A DNA stretch of 64,000 bases. Origin: a phage. Made by a program: the position numbers and the translations under genes. Positions 12,104 to 56,254 of the stretch are shown one piece after another. Every line of letters starts with the position of its first letter. The first letter of the stretch is position 1. The stretch lies in assembly GCA_020241125.1 (NCBI GenBank), contig GCA_020241125.1_4708.1. One strand, written 5' to 3'. A model generated the notes under the pieces. That model had not been told where the DNA came from. It searched no databases and saw only the letters and a list, made by a program, of their open reading frames with translations.

Positions 12104-12346
12104 TTAGCAATGGTTGTTAGTTGCTTCTATTTCGTCAAGATAAGGTTCTACGTCATCGCCCTCCACGAATTCGTTGAACCAACAGTCAATAGTGGAAATA
12201 ACCGGTGACTGGTGTTCACATTTCTTAGATACCTTAAAAGGTACGTTATTATCCATCATGCCGAGTTCGGGTCGAAAACGCCCGAAATGTTTCGCAGTCC
12301 AAATGTCTGGGACGATATGGTTGTTCATTGCGTCGCCGTCAAAGTC
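12104..12346 (-). CDS. non-virion-type RNA polymerase beta-prime-like subunit, exon 2
   Basis: Begins DFDGDAMNNH...MMDNN, matching the beta-prime NADFDGDQMAVH and LMMSTNN motifs; track ORF 12104-12349. Confidence 0.65.
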   Translation of the reverse strand, partial: DFDGDAMNNHIVPDIWTAKHFGRFRPELGMMDNNVPFKVSKKCEHQSPVISTIDCWFNEFVEGDDVEPYLDEIEATNNHC

Positions 12347-12696
12347 CACATATCTTCAGTATGAATCGCTACTTCATACCCGCAGCATTACCTGCAGCTC
12401 CTGGTGTTACCAGGACGGAGAGATCATCTCATCACCCACGAAGGGTGTTCCGCGCTACCCTCAGCGAATTCGAGGGACATGATCGTTGAACCTTCCACCG
12501 ATAATCGGTGGCTAGGCTGCTGATTAAACATTGTACGTTGGGGTGGCATCCTGGTTCAGGACTGTCGTTGAAGCCTCCCAACATCCACTCACTTATTTCC
12601 GCCTTATCGGCTCCCATAAGGGCAGAGTGGCTTTAGCCCGTCTCAGCAATTCACGGAATTCAAGCTCTTCCTTTCAGAAGGCAGGGCCTCATCTGA
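12347..12696 (-). other. putative group I self-splicing intron (no ORF) in beta-prime gene
   Basis: About 350 nt between GYNA (exon 1) and DFDGD (exon 2); read-through hits a stop. Exon 1 ends in U, insert ends in G. Contains GGUUCAACGAUCAUG with complementary AGAUGAUC downstream and several compact hairpins including a UUCG tetraloop. Confidence 0.55.
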
Positions 12697-14039: not shown

Positions 14040-15935
14040 TTAGAACAGGTTGAATGCCCCACCCATGTTGTTAACGCCAACATTCGGACGATCGCTACGT
14101 GCGTAGATGTTACCGGAGATGTTACCCAGACCACGAGCACGTGCTGCCATGTTACCACGAACAGCGGTACCTGCCAGATGCTGGATGTTCTCAGGACGGA
14201 TGGTGAAGCCAGCATCAGCAGCGGCCTCGATCAGCGCCTGCAGTGCTAACGGATCGAAGTCGTAACGCATTGCCCAGCCGGTTTGTTCCCAGCTACCAGA
14301 CAGAACACGATCAATGATTTCGTGACGAGCGACAACACGCTGAGACATCGTCATATCGGTACGGTCGAAGCTGTCTTCCCAAGCTTCTACGGTATCCGGG
14401 TTAGTGATGTTCATCATGTACAGATCGTCCATATCACGAATATCGTGACGGTGACCATCCTGGTGGTTATAATGACCCAGCGGGATACGGTTACCGGTAG
14501 CGTAGACCAGTGGTGCGCCGTACTGATATTTCTTGCTGAAGCAACCCAGGGTAGTATCATCGAAGGCACGGAAGAGTGCTTTGTAACCTTCGGAGATTTC
14601 CCGGACTTCACCTTCAACTTTGCCCGTATAGATCTTCTCAGCCGCCGGGATCATACGCAGCAGCCAGCTGTATTCGCCTTCTTCCGGTACGTCGATAGAA
14701 ATCAGCAGAGACGGATACAGTACCTGTTGCAGGAACTTGTAAATCTGCTCGTTGGTTTGAGTAGACAGATCCAGCGGTGCGGTAACTTCCGGATCCAGTA
14801 CCATCGCCAGAGCACCCGGGTTATGCGGACCAATACCACGAGCAGCGTTGCTGATTAAAGACTGTGCCCACGCCATACCGCTGTTCAGCGTAGCGATGGT
14901 GCCAATCAGACCCAACACGAAAGTGTTCGGCGTGAACGCATCCAGCTCCAGCGGGTAAGCGCTGGTCATCACGTAACGCGGTTGGTATTGTACAGTCGGC
15001 GGTACCGGATAACCGTTAACCAGAACAGGGCCTTGGTTGAAGGTCGGGTTCTGCGGGCTGTAGGTCAGGTCAATGTAACCGGTGGTTGCGACCAGACGCT
15101 GCTGACTATCGTAATCGCTCATCGCTTGACGGATGCGGTTAGAGATAGTTACAGTGATGTCAGAACGCACAGGGTTACCAACAATATCGCTGTCCTGCAT
15201 ACCGCTGGTGTTGTACTGAACGCTGCTGATTGGCTGATCGCTTGCCATCATGCCCAGGTTGAACTGCGGCAGACCCAGTTTATCGCCGAGACGGATTTCG
15301 ATCGCGGTTTGGATTGCGTTATCTGCAGCAGACAGCAGGGTGGTTGCCAGATGCGCAGATTCAGCGGTGATTTCATTGGTCACCACAGCCAGACCAGCGA
15401 TACGAGCAGTACCATTAGACTTACCACCGATAGCTGCATACATTGCCGCCATGACTTCGTTGATGAACGTACCGTTCAGGTTATCAACCCAGGTACGCGG
15501 CACCAGAATGTTACCATGCGGGCCTTGTTCTTCACGACGCGGCAGCGGAGCCAAACCGGCAACCAGTGGAAGCACATAACCGAAGAAGTGGTTATGGTCA
15601 CCAACTTTTGCACCGCTCATAACAACCAGGGTCGGATACGGTACACTGTATTGGTTAGGATCGACGGTCACCATGATGAAGTCGTCTTTGAATCCTTTAT
15701 CTTCCAGTTCTTTTTCCATCAGACGACGGAGATTCAGTACCTGCTCGGAGCCAGTATTACGGCTAATACGACGGCTCAGTGTACGGTTGATCGTACGCAT
15801 CGTATGAGTTACTTTAGGCTGGCCAGCAAAATCTGCAGCGGTTTCCAGCGCCTCATCAGCACGTTGTGCGGTGCGGGTTTCAGCTGCACGAATTTCTACA
15901 TTATCGTTACCGTTATTACGTACGTCTAAGCCCAT
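14040..15935 (-). CDS. hypothetical protein; candidate phage-nucleus shell protein (chimallin-like)
   Basis: 631 aa; AGAGGA RBS; early-promoter-like motif C upstream; sits directly upstream of the beta-prime gene, the arrangement recalled for phiKZ gp54-gp55. No sequence motif verified. Confidence 0.4.
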   Translation of the reverse strand: MGLDVRNNGNDNVEIRAAETRTAQRADEALETAADFAGQPKVTHTMRTINRTLSRRISRNTGSEQVLNLRRLMEKELEDKGFKDDFIMVTVDPNQYSVPYPTLVVMSGAKVGDHNHFFGYVLPLVAGLAPLPRREEQGPHGNILVPRTWVDNLNGTFINEVMAAMYAAIGGKSNGTARIAGLAVVTNEITAESAHLATTLLSAADNAIQTAIEIRLGDKLGLPQFNLGMMASDQPISSVQYNTSGMQDSDIVGNPVRSDITVTISNRIRQAMSDYDSQQRLVATTGYIDLTYSPQNPTFNQGPVLVNGYPVPPTVQYQPRYVMTSAYPLELDAFTPNTFVLGLIGTIATLNSGMAWAQSLISNAARGIGPHNPGALAMVLDPEVTAPLDLSTQTNEQIYKFLQQVLYPSLLISIDVPEEGEYSWLLRMIPAAEKIYTGKVEGEVREISEGYKALFRAFDDTTLGCFSKKYQYGAPLVYATGNRIPLGHYNHQDGHRHDIRDMDDLYMMNITNPDTVEAWEDSFDRTDMTMSQRVVARHEIIDRVLSGSWEQTGWAMRYDFDPLALQALIEAAADAGFTIRPENIQHLAGTAVRGNMAARARGLGNISGNIYARSDRPNVGVNNMGGAFNLF

Positions 15936-16189: not shown

Positions 16190-17284
16190 ATGTTTCGTGT
16201 TTTAAATAACCTCCCGCGAACATCATCGGGTGTGCAACCCGTCCCTCAGAAAGACTATCTAATACGCGAAGTTCAAAGAAACCTACAGACAATCCAGAAC
16301 CACTATCAAGGTTTTACCTTCGCGGTTCAGAGCGATCACATCCTTGCGTTGCTGCTCGCACAGCTCCCTATGAGATACGACATCTCAGTACAAACTTACT
16401 ACGACATGATTCTCGATCTTACTCCAGAATTGGGTAATCGTGTTAAGTTGACAACATCAAGATACGCGGGTAAGTTATTCGACGGTGCTTTCTATCCGGG
16501 ATTGCACGAAGCTATTATCGCAACCGGTGAAAGTCGTCTTATTTCACGTGACGTTCTTGACAACTGGCGTAATTGGTCACCGGTTAGAATCGTGACGCAC
16601 CCATACGCAAATCTTCGTTACATTCCTCTTCACCGAAAGCCGGTTGAAGAAGGACGAGGTTTTGCGGTCATTATGGTTGATGTACCTTTATTAGCGCTAC
16701 AGTATCGAATGTGGTCTTTGGTCATGGGTCATAACGTCGACGGCAAATGGGTGGTTAAAGAACCGGTTACAAGCTTCCTTGCGAGTTTTCCGTTGGTTAA
16801 CGCATTATACTCACACAACGATGTTGTTATACGCAATCGTTGTTTGTGGGTATCTCCGGCTAAGAATCCACTCAAATCACCAATTTACGTTAACGACCTT
16901 GATAACGTATTCAGTCAAGTCGTTCTGTCCGTACAGCATCATTTATTACGAAGAAGACGAAGCTACACCGACATGCTTAAACAGATACCGAGTTTATACG
17001 GGGATCAGTACCAAGCAACCCGAATGGGTTACACCGTCGATCTTCGGCAAACGCGATGGGCAAGGGATCTGGGTTGTCTGTCATTATGGCAACAACTCGT
17101 CACGTTGCAAAACGTATCTGAAAGCGTCGGGTTCAGCAGTCAAATCGATAATGACCTGTACCGTGCTGCCGACCGGAGTCTAAAAGAAGGTAACTGGGAG
17201 TCCTCTCCGTTACCTGGCGATTTAAGACGTGAAGTTATCGCACAGGTTGCCGACCTCTTAAAAATTCTTCCCGCTGGTGCATAA
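16190..17284 (+). CDS. hypothetical protein
   Basis: 364 aa ORF; ACGGAG RBS; followed by hairpin 17305-17334. Confidence 0.55.
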   Translation: MFRVLNNLPRTSSGVQPVPQKDYLIREVQRNLQTIQNHYQGFTFAVQSDHILALLLAQLPMRYDISVQTYYDMILDLTPELGNRVKLTTSRYAGKLFDGAFYPGLHEAIIATGESRLISRDVLDNWRNWSPVRIVTHPYANLRYIPLHRKPVEEGRGFAVIMVDVPLLALQYRMWSLVMGHNVDGKWVVKEPVTSFLASFPLVNALYSHNDVVIRNRCLWVSPAKNPLKSPIYVNDLDNVFSQVVLSVQHHLLRRRRSYTDMLKQIPSLYGDQYQATRMGYTVDLRQTRWARDLGCLSLWQQLVTLQNVSESVGFSSQIDNDLYRAADRSLKEGNWESSPLPGDLRREVIAQVADLLKILPAGA

Positions 17285-17350: not shown

Positions 17351-19504
17351 TTACTCTGCGGTTTCTTGCTTCGGTAAATAACTTGCTGCGATGTCTTGGG
17401 CTAACAATGTATTGTTTTTATTCGAGATGAAAATACCATAACTTTCCATTAACGCGTAATACGAACGCACGAGCGTAGAGATCAATCGACGAATATCCAT
17501 ACCTTGAATAAAGATATCAGGAAGCCCGGAGGCTTCGATCACCGGTAATGGTATCGTTAAGTTGCTTATCGTTTTCTTATCGTTACGTACAATCCAATCA
17601 CGGAAACGTTGTTGTAACCCTTTATCCTCCCAGGAATCAATCCAATCGTTAAGAAGCGTTTTGTTCTTCGTCGCCAACGGCACACGAACCCCAACATAGG
17701 GTGGTTCCTGGCAATGGCCGTACGATTGAGCAAACACCTCTTCCCACATATCGTAAGACTGTTTCGTTACTGCAACATGCGGTTTCACTTTAACACGTGT
17801 TAAGAAATCAGGATCACCACGTTTCATGGACTCAACGATTTCGTTTTCTAACGAGATAATATCGTCAAGAACCAATCGAATGCTGATCTTCTCGTTACGT
17901 AACAGCTTATCCATGATACCACACATCATGCGTTCAACACGTTTGACGATCATTTTTGGTGCTGACGCATCGCGCATAACCGGACCTTTCAATTCCAGCT
18001 TCGGTGGATTGATAGGAACCCCTTCACGCATGGTCATGTAACCGTAATAGTTTTTACCCATCGAGGTTAACGACAGAATCAAGAACATATATTCGTTCTT
18101 CATTTCCATCACGTACATATGCTCTTTCGCCACACCGATATTACCAGAACACATCGCCATCAGATGAACCGTAATCTGCGTAACCAGATAGATAAGCGTG
18201 TTTGCTAAGCGCGTCGAAACTGGATTGATCTCCATATTTCCAAATCGCCACTGAACCCACTCCTGGCAGGTAAACACCGTCGAGTCGGTATCAGACAACA
18301 CACCCACTTCACGGATTGCTGATGGGAAAGCATAAACACCAGCCGGTTGGTTCTCGGTACGCCAGAACGCCATAATCAAATCAGCATAGCTTTGAATACG
18401 CTGTAGCATTAATTTTGTCGTTGCTGCAGTAAGACGATAACCAAGCTCATTTCCTTTTTCTAGCGCTACGTAAATCGCTTCCCCATTCAAGAACTCCGTA
18501 CATTGTGCTGTAATCCAAGCGACCGTGTTGTTATCCATGGAAGCAATAATGGCTTTAGCCTCTTCCATCGTTTCAACAGGTTCGGATGCCAGCTCGCATA
18601 ACGAATCAAGAAAATCTCGAACAAATTCAGGATTAAGCTCACGTAACGAGTACAGGTTATTGCTATACATGTAGCAGGCGCGTTCCAGTGGGGTTAAACC
18701 GGTAATTAACTCCCGGATAGTCAGTTCTTTCTCTGGGTCGAAAGTATATCGATGCAAGCATTTCGATACGTTAGCCCAAACCTCTTCCGGCGTAGGGTAA
18801 TGTAGTTTGTATTTTACCATTACCTGTTCAATGGCTTTACGATCGCTGTTGCGGACAATACTCACGATGTTTTCAATTGCGATATCACAATCGTAATAAT
18901 GGAAATTGCCCGCAAGGAAGCGTTCGTTGTTCGCATTGGCTGAACCTGAAGCACAGCGACACGTTGTCGTTAAACTTGGATGCGCAATTGGATTATAAAA
19001 AGGGTTAAACTTGGACGCCTGGGTTCCTGACAAACTGTTGTTATCTAACTTGGTGTTGGTTTGTCGTTTATCGTGTAACTCAGCTTCATCTTTACGTCCG
19101 TGTGCTTGCGCTATCGACATTTGTTTCTTTTGTTTCTTACGCAACTTACCGTTTTCAACCGCAAAGTCGCTTAGCACACTGGAACGTGTTTCACGTGGAT
19201 AACAGTTAGCCCACACCGGCGTGATAATTAAATTATTTTCTTTAATATCATTGAAGTATTGGCTGAACTTGATGACTTCTTTTTCTCGATTTCCTTCGGT
19301 GCGCTGTGTTAATACAAGGCAGTCGGGATCAACCATCCCGTATTTTCCACCAGGACGAACCGTATCAAGGACAAACTGCAACGCTTCCTGCTGTGATATC
19401 CCACGCATGCGCATTAAGAACAGGGTATAATCCTGTACCGCTTCTTTGGTCATATCCAACGTACGGCCATATCCGTTTTCATCGTAAAAGAACGGATTTT
19501 CCAT
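17351..19504 (-). CDS. hypothetical protein; candidate divergent family-B DNA polymerase palm domain
   Basis: 717 aa; LSDTDSTVF (motif C-like YGDTDS), YSNNLYS about 120 aa upstream (motif B-like NSLYG), DNNSLSG further upstream (weak motif A-like); GGAGG RBS. Confidence 0.45.
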   Translation of the reverse strand: MENPFFYDENGYGRTLDMTKEAVQDYTLFLMRMRGISQQEALQFVLDTVRPGGKYGMVDPDCLVLTQRTEGNREKEVIKFSQYFNDIKENNLIITPVWANCYPRETRSSVLSDFAVENGKLRKKQKKQMSIAQAHGRKDEAELHDKRQTNTKLDNNSLSGTQASKFNPFYNPIAHPSLTTTCRCASGSANANNERFLAGNFHYYDCDIAIENIVSIVRNSDRKAIEQVMVKYKLHYPTPEEVWANVSKCLHRYTFDPEKELTIRELITGLTPLERACYMYSNNLYSLRELNPEFVRDFLDSLCELASEPVETMEEAKAIIASMDNNTVAWITAQCTEFLNGEAIYVALEKGNELGYRLTAATTKLMLQRIQSYADLIMAFWRTENQPAGVYAFPSAIREVGVLSDTDSTVFTCQEWVQWRFGNMEINPVSTRLANTLIYLVTQITVHLMAMCSGNIGVAKEHMYVMEMKNEYMFLILSLTSMGKNYYGYMTMREGVPINPPKLELKGPVMRDASAPKMIVKRVERMMCGIMDKLLRNEKISIRLVLDDIISLENEIVESMKRGDPDFLTRVKVKPHVAVTKQSYDMWEEVFAQSYGHCQEPPYVGVRVPLATKNKTLLNDWIDSWEDKGLQQRFRDWIVRNDKKTISNLTIPLPVIEASGLPDIFIQGMDIRRLISTLVRSYYALMESYGIFISNKNNTLLAQDIAASYLPKQETAE

Positions 19505-19578: not shown

Positions 19579-19607
19579 GAACCGATCCAGCCGAAGCCAG
19601 ATCGGTT
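19579..19607 (-). terminator. intrinsic terminator with UUCG tetraloop
   Basis: Minus-strand AACCGAUCUGGC-UUCG-GCUGGAUCGGUU (12 bp incl. 2 G-U pairs) then CUUUUUU. Confidence 0.6.
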
Positions 19608-19803: not shown

Positions 19804-20217
19804 TTACTGATTAATCAAGTCGTTAGCAACAATCTTGGTGTAACCCGCCTGATTAAGAATTTGATTAATTTTCGTCACGTCGGTCGCATCCTCAATAACG
19901 ATGCTGGGTTTATAGATCAGCGTCTTGGTAACGACGATTGTACTCTCCTTAATCCAAGGAATCCCTAGAATCACATACTCACCATCGGCTGTAATGACCT
20001 CGACGTAATTGTATTTCGTCGGATCGTTCGGTACACTAGACGGGAGCCGGGAATAAATCTGTTGGTGAATGGCGTCTACATCACGACCGTTACGTACAGC
20101 TGTGCGATAATTGTACACAGCGCTAATTTCTACTCCGTTGAAGTTAACCCCAAGTTCTGGGGCGTACACATCAAAACTCACAACAGAGCCAATCTTTTCT
20201 AAATCAGAAGCTGGCAT
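19804..20217 (-). CDS. hypothetical protein
   Basis: 137 aa track ORF. Confidence 0.5.
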   Translation of the reverse strand: MPASDLEKIGSVVSFDVYAPELGVNFNGVEISAVYNYRTAVRNGRDVDAIHQQIYSRLPSSVPNDPTKYNYVEVITADGEYVILGIPWIKESTIVVTKTLIYKPSIVIEDATDVTKINQILNQAGYTKIVANDLINQ

Positions 20218-36596: not shown

Positions 36597-39187
36597 TCAC
36601 CTTTGATTGTGTAAAACTTCGTGAAGTCCACGCGATCTTTCAAGAACTCACGACTGACGCGTTCTAAGAACCGCAGTTGTTTAACCGTAACTTCAAGCGG
36701 CGTCCAACTGTCGTGTGGATGAATAGAGACCATCCGCCAATCGTAATTACGTAACGCAGGATCGTAGTCATAGAACCATTTATACGGCTCCATGAAATCC
36801 ATCAGTTTAACGTCCTGCATATCAGGATCGGGATCGATAACACCATTGATAAGATCGTACGTTACCGCCATCAACGTTGGGCTGATAAGCTGGTATTTGT
36901 TTTCAATCGTTACCGGCGTATCGTACTTCACACGAGGGAAATACAAGGACATATAGTCTTCAACGCGTTTATCGGTTTCAAGACTTTTGTCGCGTAGATA
37001 ATACGTGTCTGTGTTCACGAGACCACGGATAGGGGCAATAACATGGTAAATCGCATAAGGCACCCCATCGTTGACTTTGATGTCGGCAGGGTATTGCGTG
37101 TCCTCTGCGGTAACCACTTCGCTACGATCGTAAATACGTCCACCAACCACAATACGAACAACATGGTCGTCACGAACATTAAACACGTCGTCGTAAGAAA
37201 GCTGATTATGCATCGTCCAACCGGTATCGTAAACGGTTTCACCGGTTAAGTCCGTACGTGGAAAACCAGTACATCTCACGGTAACCGTGTGCGTGTTCCC
37301 TTCACTGAAATACCGTTTCGCGTTGATCATGATCGTTGGCCATTTTACGATATAATCGATATCGCGTACCAAGCTGTAGCTTTTGGTTGCTCGCTCGTCA
37401 CCTAACCATACTTCGATTTGACCAGGTTCGAAAGGCAGCGGATATTCAACATCAATACCCGTCGTAACATCCAACCATACGGTGTGGTTACGATGTTGTA
37501 TTGTGGTCTTATACGCTAAGAAGTAGGTGTCGAACAATACTAAACCGGTTTGCTTTCTTCCATCCAACGACCATTTTATTACCCCGTTCTCTTCCGTTAC
37601 CACAGAAGCATCGTCGGTAACATCCTTCCATGTGTTCGCGACAGGTTGTCCGTTACGAAGATTTACGCTATAACAGCGGTAACTCGCCCATTCACGGATT
37701 GGGACGTCGGCAACACCCATCACGTAATCAAGCGTTCTCCCACCAACACCCGATCGACCCTCAACATAGGACGTGGTTTCATATTGCGGATAAAAATGTC
37801 GGCCTGCCGGATGTTGCGTGATACCCAATAATAGACCGTCACTGTCGTACTCAAAGAACGTCGCATTTGCACGTAAACCCCATGGTACTTCAGCGGTAGG
37901 GGTACCCATATCGTCAGTAACGCGTTGTGGACTATCTGCAACCAGTTTTGCCATCGCGTTATACCCGTAAGCGGAGGTCACCATGTCGATCGTGATATTG
38001 CTTTCCTTATTACGCATGATGCGTGTATAATCACTGGCTTCAAGCGTGCGTGCAAAGAACTCGGGTATATTAGCGTTCTGTTCTAACATCGCACCGACGA
38101 TGACGTCGTCTGGAAGTTTATACAGTTCGTGGATGCGGTTATGTTCGAAGGTTAACTGCGTTTTCAAACCGCTATCACGGACAACCACTTCCAGGGTTAA
38201 ATCACGAAGCGATTCTGCTCCATCAACCCGTTCAACGAAGTAGCTGACATAATCAACAGGAATCCCGTAATCACGATGCGTGAGCATGCGGATACTATTT
38301 TCCTGGTTGGTATGGTAATAACGTCCTTTTCCGTTAGGCCCTTTCACGTAGATATCAACGTCATCACGATACCGGATTTTAGTATCCGCTTCATCTTTCG
38401 GCGGATGAATAAGATACTTCACTTTTTTGTCCAGATCGCTGTTGTACGTTTTAAGATCTTCTACACGGAAGCTGTACCGATGAACAACGGTACCGTCATA
38501 GACGACCTGAATGCTATCACCGATCTTAAAACTTGTCGGCGGAATGTCTTCAACCGCTTCACCATTGATACTGCAGTGCGTCCAGCCGATACCGGTTTCC
38601 TGAATCTTTTTACGCCAGGCGTATAGCTGACGCTGCCACTGTAGAACCTGTGTCGAGCTGGTTACAATCCCCCCAAGGACATGCACTTCACGCCCCGTCG
38701 GTTTCGTGTATGACGGATAGCCTTCTGCGAAGTCGGCGTTGAGATAGGTGCGCCAGTAATAATCACCAACGCCAAGGTCAGCGATATTCGGTTGGTCGAG
38801 CACACAGACCAGCATCGTTTCGTTTTCCAGATTACCCGTCCACGTTAATGTCAACGGGAATTCTTTACCGTCCTCGGTATAGATATTGTAATACGATCCC
38901 TTCACCTCACAGAACTTGCTGAGTTCTCGCCACCACAACCGACCCGCCCCGACATTAAAATCCTCCCCCATATGTCGTCCAATAACAAACACATGGAACG
39001 TATTGGTATCATCAGGAAGATTGAATGTACGATGCCAAGCCGTAAAGTTTTTTACTGCGCCGGTCTTTCCGGTAATACGACGCATCTTGATACGATGCTG
39101 GTTGTCCATTAATGGACGGCAGTTCACATTCAGCGCAGCATGATTTATCAAGTATTGCGCTGTAGGATTAGAAGCGTTCAACACCAC
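36593..39187 (-). CDS. hypothetical protein, possibly virion-associated
   Basis: 864 aa track ORF; start overlaps upstream stop. Confidence 0.55.
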   Translation of the reverse strand: MVLNASNPTAQYLINHAALNVNCRPLMDNQHRIKMRRITGKTGAVKNFTAWHRTFNLPDDTNTFHVFVIGRHMGEDFNVGAGRLWWRELSKFCEVKGSYYNIYTEDGKEFPLTLTWTGNLENETMLVCVLDQPNIADLGVGDYYWRTYLNADFAEGYPSYTKPTGREVHVLGGIVTSSTQVLQWQRQLYAWRKKIQETGIGWTHCSINGEAVEDIPPTSFKIGDSIQVVYDGTVVHRYSFRVEDLKTYNSDLDKKVKYLIHPPKDEADTKIRYRDDVDIYVKGPNGKGRYYHTNQENSIRMLTHRDYGIPVDYVSYFVERVDGAESLRDLTLEVVVRDSGLKTQLTFEHNRIHELYKLPDDVIVGAMLEQNANIPEFFARTLEASDYTRIMRNKESNITIDMVTSAYGYNAMAKLVADSPQRVTDDMGTPTAEVPWGLRANATFFEYDSDGLLLGITQHPAGRHFYPQYETTSYVEGRSGVGGRTLDYVMGVADVPIREWASYRCYSVNLRNGQPVANTWKDVTDDASVVTEENGVIKWSLDGRKQTGLVLFDTYFLAYKTTIQHRNHTVWLDVTTGIDVEYPLPFEPGQIEVWLGDERATKSYSLVRDIDYIVKWPTIMINAKRYFSEGNTHTVTVRCTGFPRTDLTGETVYDTGWTMHNQLSYDDVFNVRDDHVVRIVVGGRIYDRSEVVTAEDTQYPADIKVNDGVPYAIYHVIAPIRGLVNTDTYYLRDKSLETDKRVEDYMSLYFPRVKYDTPVTIENKYQLISPTLMAVTYDLINGVIDPDPDMQDVKLMDFMEPYKWFYDYDPALRNYDWRMVSIHPHDSWTPLEVTVKQLRFLERVSREFLKDRVDFTKFYTIKGE

Positions 39188-54607: not shown

Positions 54608-56254
54608 TTAGGCTCCACGAGGTCCCGTTAAGTTGCGTAATAGGAACGCAACCGTATCGTAACCAATATCGATGTTGAATTTATTTTTACCACTTACCCA
54701 GAAAGCTCGCTTCTTGTGCGAGTTGGTAATTTCGTCAATAGCTTCCATGGAATAAAGAACGTTAACCGAGACCGTATCACCATCAAAGTCCCCACCAAGT
54801 CCGGCGAGGTATGGCGCAGGGACAATAGTCGTTTCTACGAACGAAGCATTAGGTAACCAGTCGGGGTATTCCCATGCGATAAATCGTTCATCCGTTATTG
54901 GTTCCCAGTTACTATCCAGTTCGGTTTTCGGTTTTGCGGCGACGGTTGTACGTGCGTAACAGGTTAACGGGATAACGGATTGCATACCTGATACCGGATA
55001 ACGTGTTACCATCGCAGCCAGGTTATTCCAGTACTTATATCCGGCAATATAGATAAGCTCGGTGTAAGTAATGGGGTGAACATCCGCGCCAGGTTTATTC
55101 AACATCTCCGGGGGTAATTCACTCATGTCACGGAATAACCGAAACGAATCGTTGTTCACATAGACGAGGCAAAGATATCGTCCATTGACCATGATAGGCT
55201 CGTTACGCACGCCAGGATCGCTTAAGGTGTTCAGTAAACGTTCTATTCCGTCCCATGTTGTAAAGTCATCGATGGTGTCTGGATCAAGCGTGACGCGCTC
55301 ACGTTCCATCGTTTCGGTATCAATAAGTTCAACTTCTGTAACATCACGGACAAATATTTCCTGCAAAATACCTGTACGTAACGCATGTTGCGTTACTGGG
55401 AGAGCGGCTTTACTCATCTGGTATAACCCTAACTGAACCGCGGTACAGGAAGGCTGGTTAGGCGACCCTAATACCTCCGTTGTGGGGTTAATTGCCGAAA
55501 TAACGTTACGGGTTGAGTTCCAAACGCGACGTGAACCAAACTTACCTTGGAAGATCCCTTTCTTACCCTGGAACATATCCAACAGTAAAGCGTAGATATC
55601 GTTGAATGTTCTCTGTAAGCTCCAGCGCTGGCCGTCGTAAACGGGATCGGAATAATCTTTTAATCCATCAGGGACGGTGTTAGAAATTGCAAGGAAACGA
55701 CGATACAACTCCGTGATTTCTTGCTCGCTTTCATACCCACCTTCTTTTACTTCTATTTCACGTAAGCCTGCAGGCAATACCAGTAAGTGACGGGTCATCG
55801 CTTTGAACATGTTCTCTTCGACAACTTTAATTCGTAGCTCTCGTTGAGCTGAACCCGTTGAAACGAACTTGATATCCGCGACGTGTTGTGCAAAGAACCC
55901 GTATCCTGTTTGTCCTGTTAATGCATCAGACGCAACGAAGTCGCGTTGTTCGGGATCCCACCGAGCGTACGCCTTCCCCGACATGATATCGCCATAGAGG
56001 TGTTTTAATCGAATGAGACGGTCGTAAATGACAGGATGCAGGATTTCAACCTTGCATTCAATCACCGCAAATCGACGGTCTCGATCTTCACTACCCGCAC
56101 TACCAAAGATGGTGTAAGAATAGAAACCATCATCGTGGAAATTACCGGTGCTTGGGTCACGAATGCTCATGCTCGTGATCTTGGGGAGAAAACGTAACTG
56201 CTGTTTATCGAGGTGTAAAATACTAATATTAAACGGCTCTCTGACTTTAGCCAT
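54608..56254 (-). CDS. virion-type RNA polymerase beta-prime-like subunit, N-terminal fragment
   Basis: Track ORF 54608-56296; likely start at Met 15 with AAGAGGAG. Motifs LLVLPAGLREI (VLPPDLRP), ITELYRRF (DLNDLYRR), GGDFDGDTVSVNVLYSMEA (NADFDGDQMAVH). Confidence 0.7.
   Translation of the reverse strand: MAKVREPFNISILHLDKQQLRFLPKITSMSIRDPSTGNFHDDGFYSYTIFGSAGSEDRDRRFAVIECKVEILHPVIYDRLIRLKHLYGDIMSGKAYARWDPEQRDFVASDALTGQTGYGFFAQHVADIKFVSTGSAQRELRIKVVEENMFKAMTRHLLVLPAGLREIEVKEGGYESEQEITELYRRFLAISNTVPDGLKDYSDPVYDGQRWSLQRTFNDIYALLLDMFQGKKGIFQGKFGSRRVWNSTRNVISAINPTTEVLGSPNQPSCTAVQLGLYQMSKAALPVTQHALRTGILQEIFVRDVTEVELIDTETMERERVTLDPDTIDDFTTWDGIERLLNTLSDPGVRNEPIMVNGRYLCLVYVNNDSFRLFRDMSELPPEMLNKPGADVHPITYTELIYIAGYKYWNNLAAMVTRYPVSGMQSVIPLTCYARTTVAAKPKTELDSNWEPITDERFIAWEYPDWLPNASFVETTIVPAPYLAGLGGDFDGDTVSVNVLYSMEAIDEITNSHKKRAFWVSGKNKFNIDIGYDTVAFLLRNLTGPRGA

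Follow-up and report, generated by a model that had tools for sequence, protein, structure and literature searches.

The window is a stretch of 64,000 nucleotides that runs in the orientation of the Escherichia phage vB_EcoM_Goslar record (MK327938.1) and covers its bases 156964-220963. The open reading frame of interest is Goslar_00191, whose product gp191 was located at positions 174317-176467 of the record by tblastn against MK327938.1, with 100% identity over 717 residues. It is encoded on the minus strand; the strand was missing from the initial annotation. Upstream lies Goslar_00192, which matches PF20287, a family named 'SH3 fold domain associated with phage DNA polymerases', and is called SH3DP below. 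The hairpin between the two genes is also annotated in GenBank as a putative terminator. Rfam gave no match for the whole window at the gathering threshold, nor at E<=0.01 in two sub-regions with group I introns in the GenBank annotation, and no tRNAs were found in the window. The features of the locus are collected in Table 1. The names DNAPC (gp191) and DNAPN (the spliced product gp68 of Goslar_00068) are those of a preprint (PMC13648698), whose abstract appears to describe the same two proteins.

Table 1. Genes, domains and motifs at the DNAPC locus; positions are those of the window and residue numbers within DNAPC those of gp191.
Feature	Positions	Strand	Basis or remark
DNAPC gene (Goslar_00191, QBO63983.1)	17351..19504	-	717 aa, ATG start; GenBank label 'hypothetical protein'
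Thumb domain, residues 513-717	17354..17968	-	Helix-rich C-terminal domain (AF2); profile 479-532 runs into RB69 thumb
KxY ('KKRY') primer-binding motif, K484-N485-Y486	18047..18055	-	K484 and Y486 invariant; RB69 705-708
Motif C, S404-D405-T406-D407-S408, tip of palm beta-hairpin, predicted metal-binding DxD	18281..18295	-	Conservation, model
Lineage-specific all-helical insert, residues 206-380 (~175 residues)	18365..18889	-	AF2 model, pLDDT 91-99
YSNNLYS string inside the insert, not catalytic	18647-18667	-	Helices 272-290; conservation
Motif B, K152-L-D-N-N156-S157-L-S159-G160 (KxxxNSxSG), second fingers helix (138-161)	19025..19051	-	RB69 alignment
First fingers helix, R122 + K126 (i/i+4)	19127..19141	-	Invariant 63/63; model helix 110-134
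N-terminal module, residues 1-92: two helices, beta-hairpin, helix	19229..19504	-	AF2 secondary structure
Strong terminator-like hairpin, 12-bp stem then CTTTTTT	19580..19607	-	Between SH3DP gene and DNAPC start codon
SH3DP gene (Goslar_00192), 137 aa, SH3 fold	19804..20217	-	PF20287, E=1.3e-36

Profile searches show that gp191 is a member of PF20286, a divergent family-B clade confined to the phiKZ-like (Chimalliviridae, 'group 1') jumbo phages. The match scores 681 bits (cutoff 25.7, E=2.4e-204), well above what chance would give, and spans residues 9-705 of 717, aligned to profile positions 3-704 of 705. PHROG 2927, 'DNA polymerase', matches with E=2.5e-206, and phrog_262, also DNA polymerase, matches locally at residues 104-210. 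The initial annotation had proposed a highly divergent family-B DNA polymerase, and this is confirmed by the full-length match and by a model with the PolB palm, fingers and thumb fold. It had also pointed to the DNA_pol_B profile as a check, and here the outcome was divided: PF00136 (DNA_pol_B) gives no match to the Goslar protein at E<=10, and the polymerase is recognised by PF20286 instead. A PF00136 match is precomputed for many homologs, and the homolog P0244 scores 29.9 bits with this profile in the region of motif B, against a cutoff of 23. Single-sequence phmmer with gp191 against PDB sequences found nothing, and the family profile was therefore required for alignment to the PDB.

Conservation was examined in an alignment of 63 homologous sequences with 24-64% identity to Goslar gp191, most relatives being 24-37% identical. 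Invariant in all of them are R122, K126, K152, N156, G160, T179, G199, R398, D405, T406, D407, S408, K469, E471, K484, Y486, E494, K506 and G507. Goslar deviates at four otherwise conserved positions (Y101C, R201F, D283N and H485N). The family profile aligns to RB69 gp43 in two blocks, positions 78-161 to RB69 437-569 and positions 479-532 to RB69 705-758, and a palm fold is predicted. In the first block 'SPSxTxY...R..K' falls on RB69 'SPNGMMYY...QRKEHK' and 'K..NNSLSG' on 'K..INSLYG'; in the second, 'aKhY' falls on 'KKRY' (705-708) within the best-scoring stretch. The profile segment '...RkkaK...' is aligned to '...QRKEHK...', and by position we take R122 and K126 to be the counterparts of the RB69 fingers residues R482 and K486.

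These alignments change the motif map. The string DNNSLSG (residues 154-160), which had been read as a weak motif A, is motif B: it is aligned to RB69 '..K..NSL.G' at 560-568 (K560-x3-N564-SLYG), K152, N156 and G160 are invariant, S157 is found in 60 of the 63 sequences and S159 in 61. Ser159 stands where canonical PolBs have Tyr. The string YSNNLYS (280-286), formerly labelled motif B-like, belongs to the helices of the lineage-specific insert; its family consensus is YTGDLYH, and the 63-sequence alignment shows neither an invariant residue in it nor an upstream Lys. LSDTDSTVF (403-411) was correctly recognised as motif C, with D405, T406, D407 and S408 in 63/63 and S404 in 62/63, and in the AF2 model it forms the hairpin 403-410 with strands 403-405 and 408-410. 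The three strings do stand in the order given, but the labels A and B were wrong; motif hunting by eye had misplaced both. The warning that short motifs can be coincidental was justified. The six-frame translation of the window (127,996 residues) contains 'DTDS' once, 'Y..NLY' once and 'K...NS.[YFS]G' twice, and the loose motif-A pattern 'D..SL[YFS]' occurs five times, so a string of the DNNSLSG type is weak evidence on its own.

Global TM-scores reach only about 0.25 for the gp191 model, a low value that reflects the insert and the orientation of the domains. The insert is placed between the palm helix that follows motif B and the motif C hairpin, and it separates K152 from D405 by 253 residues. 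In RB69 the residues that are presumably equivalent, K560 and D621, are 61 residues apart. Iyer et al. (2021, PMC7824862) describe an insert of several helices and of exceptional length as a hallmark of the divergent clade, and the 253-residue spacing identifies the insert of gp191 as this hallmark. gp191 thus shows the traits of the PF20286 clade, with residues 206-380 helical ahead of the motif C strands and no fused exonuclease. At the other end of the protein, the alignment with RB69 runs from about residue 78 onward, starting at RB69 437, and residues 1-77, which have no RB69 counterpart, are likely to be a docking surface for the tail of DNAPN.

No motif A was found in gp191. The 63-sequence alignment has no invariant acidic residue N-terminal to the fingers, and the model has no strand-plus-Asp element ahead of them. 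Three candidates were rejected for lack of conservation: D59 in 'VDPD' (D39/N9/E3), N72 (D38/N24, N in Goslar) and 'NPF...Y12'. Exonuclease motifs or an exonuclease domain are also absent from the open reading frame, as the initial annotation had observed. The lack of motif A in gp191 is explained by the partner: the exonuclease subunit carries the catalytic Asp of this motif.

That partner was recognised through Erwinia phage Kwan, in which a second CDS labelled 'DNA polymerase' codes for gp57 (590 aa) and lies about 31 kb away from the homolog of gp191. Kwan gp57 contains VIDVET (Exo I), WNHQFD (Exo II) and YAVYNIMD (Exo III), and in its C-terminal end region DLTQAYPS, a near-canonical motif A. 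A tblastn search with it in the window and in two further segments of Goslar gave chance matches only; the best of these, at 37724-37864 in the window, falls inside an 864-aa virion-type ORF and was discarded, which places the DNAPN gene outside the window. The search of the genome for a separate exonuclease gene, also proposed initially, was successful: the gene is Goslar_00068, at 79690-81189 of the record and about 93 kb from that of gp191. GenBank labels it a 499-aa hypothetical protein ending in '...RLFVAD*' and records a weak DNA_pol_B_exo1 similarity.

The GenBank annotation truncates Goslar_00068, having missed a group I intron that lies at motif A and the second exon behind it. Downstream of the gene are a NUMOD1/HNH homing-endonuclease gene and then the core of a group I intron (Rfam RF00028, 44.7 bits, E=3e-9), and past the intron an unannotated reading frame, 'LDISSSYPNGQ...', would be the 84-codon exon 2 of DNAPN. 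The predicted junction leads from GCGGAU (U at the 5' site) to CUCGAU, which is preceded by the intron-terminal G; splicing there would remove 1762 nt (record 81187-82948) and yield a DNAPN of 583 aa, which can be aligned with Kwan gp57 over the whole length. An uninterrupted 583-aa ORF, 99% identical, is present in a 237-kb Goslar-like metagenomic contig (P0113), and its junction is exactly the predicted spliced sequence (...FVADLDISSSYPN...). The alleles with and without the intron share 96% DNA identity upstream, and they differ by synonymous changes crowded into the roughly 30 nt that flank the insertion site on each side. Such clustering is a typical signature of homing and co-conversion.

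Among 54 DNAPN homologs D155/E157 (Exo I), N254/D258 (Exo II) and Y389/D393 (Exo III) are invariant, and so are D499, D501, Y506 and P507 of motif A (D-x4-Y-P). Spliced DNAPN matches no Pfam family at E<=0.01, and its membership was therefore set by profile-to-PDB alignment and by fold. The DNAPN profile is collinear with RB69 105-232, 270-380 and 404-431. The third block, 'rahvaDLDvssaYPneeavlniskettv' over the motif A region of RB69, is weak alone (1.3 bits) and is supported by the collinearity, the invariance and a common 'NIS.ET' string. In the AlphaFold model residues 7-460 are confident, and Foldseek superposes them (E=6.7e-13, some 455 columns) on the N-terminal and exonuclease halves of RB69 gp43, Pol epsilon and Pol II; residues 461-583, with motif A and the tail, are of low confidence in isolation.

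The genes for DNAPN and DNAPC co-occur almost one to one. DNAPN homologs were found in 296 phage records, and the counts of the two proteins are equal in eight of ten listed genera (Bacillus 6 vs 9). No fused DNAPN-DNAPC protein is present among the best 150 DNAPC representatives, none of which is long enough, and nearly all of these start at profile position 1-4. A 967-aa outlier (P0281) was considered as an SH3DP-DNAPC fusion and rejected, its extension being a 5'-3' exonuclease/T4 RNase H-like domain. The co-occurrence and the low confidence of motif A and the tail in the isolated model indirectly support a physical association of DNAPN with DNAPC.

The initial annotation had envisaged a split polymerase with a separately encoded exonuclease. 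The separate exonuclease lies on DNAPN, but the cut appears to lie within the palm, and motif A leaves with the exonuclease. On RB69 gp43 the cut maps between residues ~431 and ~437, so that motif A with its helix precedes it and the fingers follow. With motif A on DNAPN and the fingers on DNAPC, the split would pass through the palm, beyond the boundary between exonuclease and polymerase domains, and gp191 is very probably no complete polymerase by itself, since DNAPN holds the first palm strand with motif A. At the cut both chains are longer than RB69 gp43 by about 60-77 residues, three predicted helices in the DNAPN tail (508-583) and two helices and a hairpin in the DNAPC head (1-77), and these presumably zip the halves together.

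We consider it very probable that gp191 is DNAPC, the C-terminal catalytic subunit of the two-chain replicative family-B polymerase of Goslar, and that motif A and the exonuclease reside on DNAPN. Judged by the collinearity with RB69, the two chains would come together as a single PolB-like enzyme whose active site is composite. DNAPN would contribute the catalytic Asp D501, the steric-gate Tyr Y506 (followed by Pro507), the N-terminal domain and Exo I/II/III. The fingers of DNAPC (R122, K126, K152, N156) would bind the incoming dNTP, D405 and D407 of the motif C hairpin the catalytic metal, and K484/Y486 would contact the primer, with the thumb holding the primer-template; DNAPC would also supply the clade-specific 175-residue helical insert. 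In PolB active sites the steric-gate Tyr confers selectivity for dNTPs, and the invariant Y506 predicts such selectivity here. With Exo I-III intact, the enzyme is expected to proofread. According to the abstract of the 2026 preprint (PMC13648698), the enzyme would work inside the phage nucleus together with Rhc, an RNase H-clamp protein. Rhc may be Goslar_00246, a protein of 508 aa with an RNase_H domain at residues 87-194 (E=1.9e-25).

The contributions of the insert and of SH3DP can be proposed with some caution. SH3DP is encoded upstream of the polymerase in Kwan as well, where gp27 precedes gp28, and Goslar_00192 and the Kwan SH3DP match each other pairwise with E=3e-4. Iyer et al. (PMC7824862) noted this neighbourhood and suggested SH3DP as a potential subunit, and it is possible that Goslar_00192 is an accessory subunit of the polymerase. 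A more far-reaching proposal, which we regard as rather unlikely, is that the split is a functional design, with motif A supplied in trans and with the insert, SH3DP and RNase H-clamp forming a module for clamp-free processivity and primer processing. Polymerisation would then be possible solely after assembly of DNAPN and DNAPC, and this assembly could follow separate import into the phage nucleus. Such a module would be without counterpart in other family-B replicases and might even reach priming in these primase-less phages. One relative has a FEN nuclease fused to DNAPC, an alternative to the RNase H-clamp in a module of this kind.

Priming by the enzyme itself has been raised by Iyer et al. 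(PMC7824862), because the group 1 phages have RNase H and no recognisable primase. A 'primpol'-like activity would account for the absence of DnaG and AEP primases, and the helical insert and the N-terminal module, to which no function is assigned, leave room for it. We hold this to be improbable. Neither subunit shows a primase-like fold or motif, the invariant Y506 of DNAPN argues for dNTP selectivity, and priming by the phage multisubunit RNAP is an equal alternative (Iyer et al., PMC7824862).

It is highly improbable that gp191 is instead a self-sufficient, exonuclease-less polymerase with motifs A, B and C on one chain, to which the exonuclease is merely an optional proofreading accessory. 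The A-B-C order of the three strings is in keeping with such an enzyme, as is the description by Iyer et al. (PMC7824862) of the exonuclease as only a standalone protein that 'might associate'. However, the presumed motif A falls on motif B of RB69 and has the invariant Lys four residues upstream, the presumed motif B lies in the helical insert without an invariant residue, no invariant Asp or Glu precedes the fingers, and a canonical invariant motif A (D-x4-YP) is present on DNAPN, whose gene accompanies that of DNAPC almost one to one. Scarcely credible is a catalytically dead scaffold relic or a repair polymerase in place of a replicase: the extreme divergence, with no PF00136 match and no phmmer match in the PDB, and the four Goslar-specific substitutions would fit it, but the catalytic and substrate-binding positions are all invariant, Goslar included, the gene belongs to the Chimalliviridae core with a homolog that localises to the phage nucleus (PMC10299810), it is the defining polymerase of its phage group (PMC7824862), and the Goslar complex is called the replication polymerase in the abstract of PMC13648698.

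The two-chain polymerase with DNAPC as its C-terminal subunit fits what has been published. The split and divergent polymerase family is already known, and prior knowledge covers essentially everything reported here. PMC5105663 cites the identification, in about 2012, of a 'split subunit DNA polymerase' in phiKZ. The absent fused exonuclease, the helical insert and the SH3 neighbour of the divergent clade were published in 2021 (PMC7824862), the nuclear localisation of the homolog in phage RAY and the status of the polymerase as a core gene have been reported (PMC10299810), and a DNAPN-DNAPC-Rhc replication polymerase complex of Goslar is described in the abstract of the 2026 preprint (PMC13648698). 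A literature search for Goslar gp191 found no paper. As a discovery the finding on gp191 matters little, and its practical value lies in annotation. Goslar_00191 deserves the name 'DNA polymerase, C-terminal subunit', and the annotation of Goslar_00068 needs mending with the intron at motif A and the second exon of 84 codons. For research on replication in nucleus-forming phages, a catalytic centre that would be shared by two polypeptides, with the cut lying between motifs A and B, is a distinct and testable feature.

Comparisons within PF20286 (divDNApol) show that gp191 has no substantive difference from its relatives, such as Erwinia phage RAY gp220 and Kwan gp28, apart from a few lineage-specific substitutions. 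It matches the profile over its full length in the 700-800 aa class and shares with them the invariant motifs, the helical insert, the upstream SH3DP and a separate N-terminal/exonuclease partner. Of the canonical family-B features, gp191 has motif B with the R/K pair, motif C, KxY, the thumb and the palm-fingers-thumb fold. Motif A and a fused N-terminal domain and exonuclease are missing from the chain, and the predicted two-subunit enzyme has both. RB69/T4 gp43 consists of one chain, about 900 aa long, whereas the Goslar polymerase would have two, and compared with gp43 the Goslar gp191 has much shorter fingers, 175 residues inserted before motif C and Ser for Tyr in motif B. We know of no PCNA-type clamp partner in phiKZ-like phages. 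An RNase H-clamp protein is reported for the Goslar polymerase in the abstract of PMC13648698.

The closest relatives by profile-profile comparison are the family-B polymerases of poxviruses and NCLDV (Iyer et al., PMC7824862). The DNAPC profile matches vaccinia E9 and mpox F8 with E=2e-5, over the fingers and motif B only (profile 116-187). Unlike the Goslar polymerase, these enzymes are single chains that include the exonuclease by fusion and have processivity factors of their own. [quoted passage not shown] A naturally split polymerase is also known from Methanothermobacter thermautotrophicus, where PolB has two subunits that must assemble for activity. Its cut is further C-terminal: motifs A and B remain on the chain of the exonuclease, and a separate chain carries motif C and the thumb. 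The Goslar polymerase differs in that it appears to be divided between motifs A and B.

A group I intron that carries the NUMOD1/HNH endonuclease gene Goslar_00069 breaks the gene for the N-terminal, exonuclease-bearing polymerase subunit DNAPN (Goslar_00068) precisely at motif A. The GenBank product is cut to 499 aa and the second exon is absent from the annotation. Sequence comparison with an intron-less allele from a Goslar-like metagenomic contig (protein P0113, DNA L007), which is 99% identical, confirms the predicted splice junction. Synonymous changes between the two alleles are clustered around the insertion site, a pattern that we read as the signature of homing and co-conversion.

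Among metagenomic relatives, P0154, P0188, P0176 and about 20 other DNAPN gene calls (457-508 aa) end at or just past '...VADLD', within motif A. Because so many calls end there, introns or other interruptions appear to be recurrent at this same conserved site. In phiKZ-type Pseudomonas phages (SL2, Churi, Phabio and others) the DNAPN match is split into two tblastn pieces over about 1.9 kb. Since DNAPN homologs of 629-640 aa exist, the cause is probably not an intron but about 60 extra residues inserted in frame.

Two further group I introns are annotated inside the window as 'Intron_gpI', both adjoining split RNAP-subunit genes and HNH genes. With Rfam 15, the whole window was negative at the gathering threshold, as were the sub-regions holding the two features at E<=0.01. 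Either these introns are too far diverged for RF00028 or their annotation is doubtful.

Features noted in the Goslar genome
Feature	Position	Strand	Remark
'Intron_gpI' ncRNA	window 12306-12682		GenBank annotation
'Intron_gpI' ncRNA	window 54854-55282		GenBank annotation
Goslar_00189, chimallin gene, 631 aa	window 14040-15935	(-)	PF25677, E=2.7e-26
Goslar_00190, 364-aa ORF	window 16190-17284	(+)	between chimallin and polymerase genes, opposite strand
DNAPC Y101C	residue 101; gene window 17351-19504	(-)	family Y in 60/63
DNAPC R201F	residue 201; same gene	(-)	family R in 53/63
DNAPC D283N	residue 283; same gene	(-)	family D in 57/63
DNAPC H485N	residue 485; same gene	(-)	family H in 58/63
Group I intron, 1762 nt	L005 31187-32948 = MK327938.1 81187-82948, outside window		unannotated in GenBank
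DNAPN exon 2, 84 codons	L005 32949-33203 = MK327938.1 82949-83203, outside window		missed in GenBank
Goslar_00147	L004 27994-29223 = MK327938.1 134993-136222, outside window	(-)	GenBank note

Goslar_00147, with weak similarity to 'exonuclease A' and a DUF5051 3'-exonuclease domain in its GenBank note, is a candidate second stand-alone exonuclease. It is distinct from the polymerase partner, DNAPN.

Two genes downstream of the gene for the C-terminal subunit DNAPC lies Goslar_00189, labelled 'hypothetical' in GenBank and identified by its profile match as the phage-nucleus shell protein chimallin. Goslar_00190 has no Pfam match, and the one resemblance recorded for it is to a hypothetical protein of an Erwinia jumbo phage.

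At four positions Goslar DNAPC itself lacks the residue that is nearly invariant in the family; none of the four is a known catalytic residue. In the predicted gene call of one relative, P0281 (967 aa), the DNAPC N-terminus is joined to a FEN domain of the 5'-3' exonuclease / T4 RNase H-like type (PF02739 and PF09293). As a Rosetta-stone sign, this candidate fusion hints that primer-removal nucleases may work physically with DNAPC, in agreement with the interaction between DNAPC and the RNase H-clamp protein Rhc that PMC13648698 reports for the Goslar complex.
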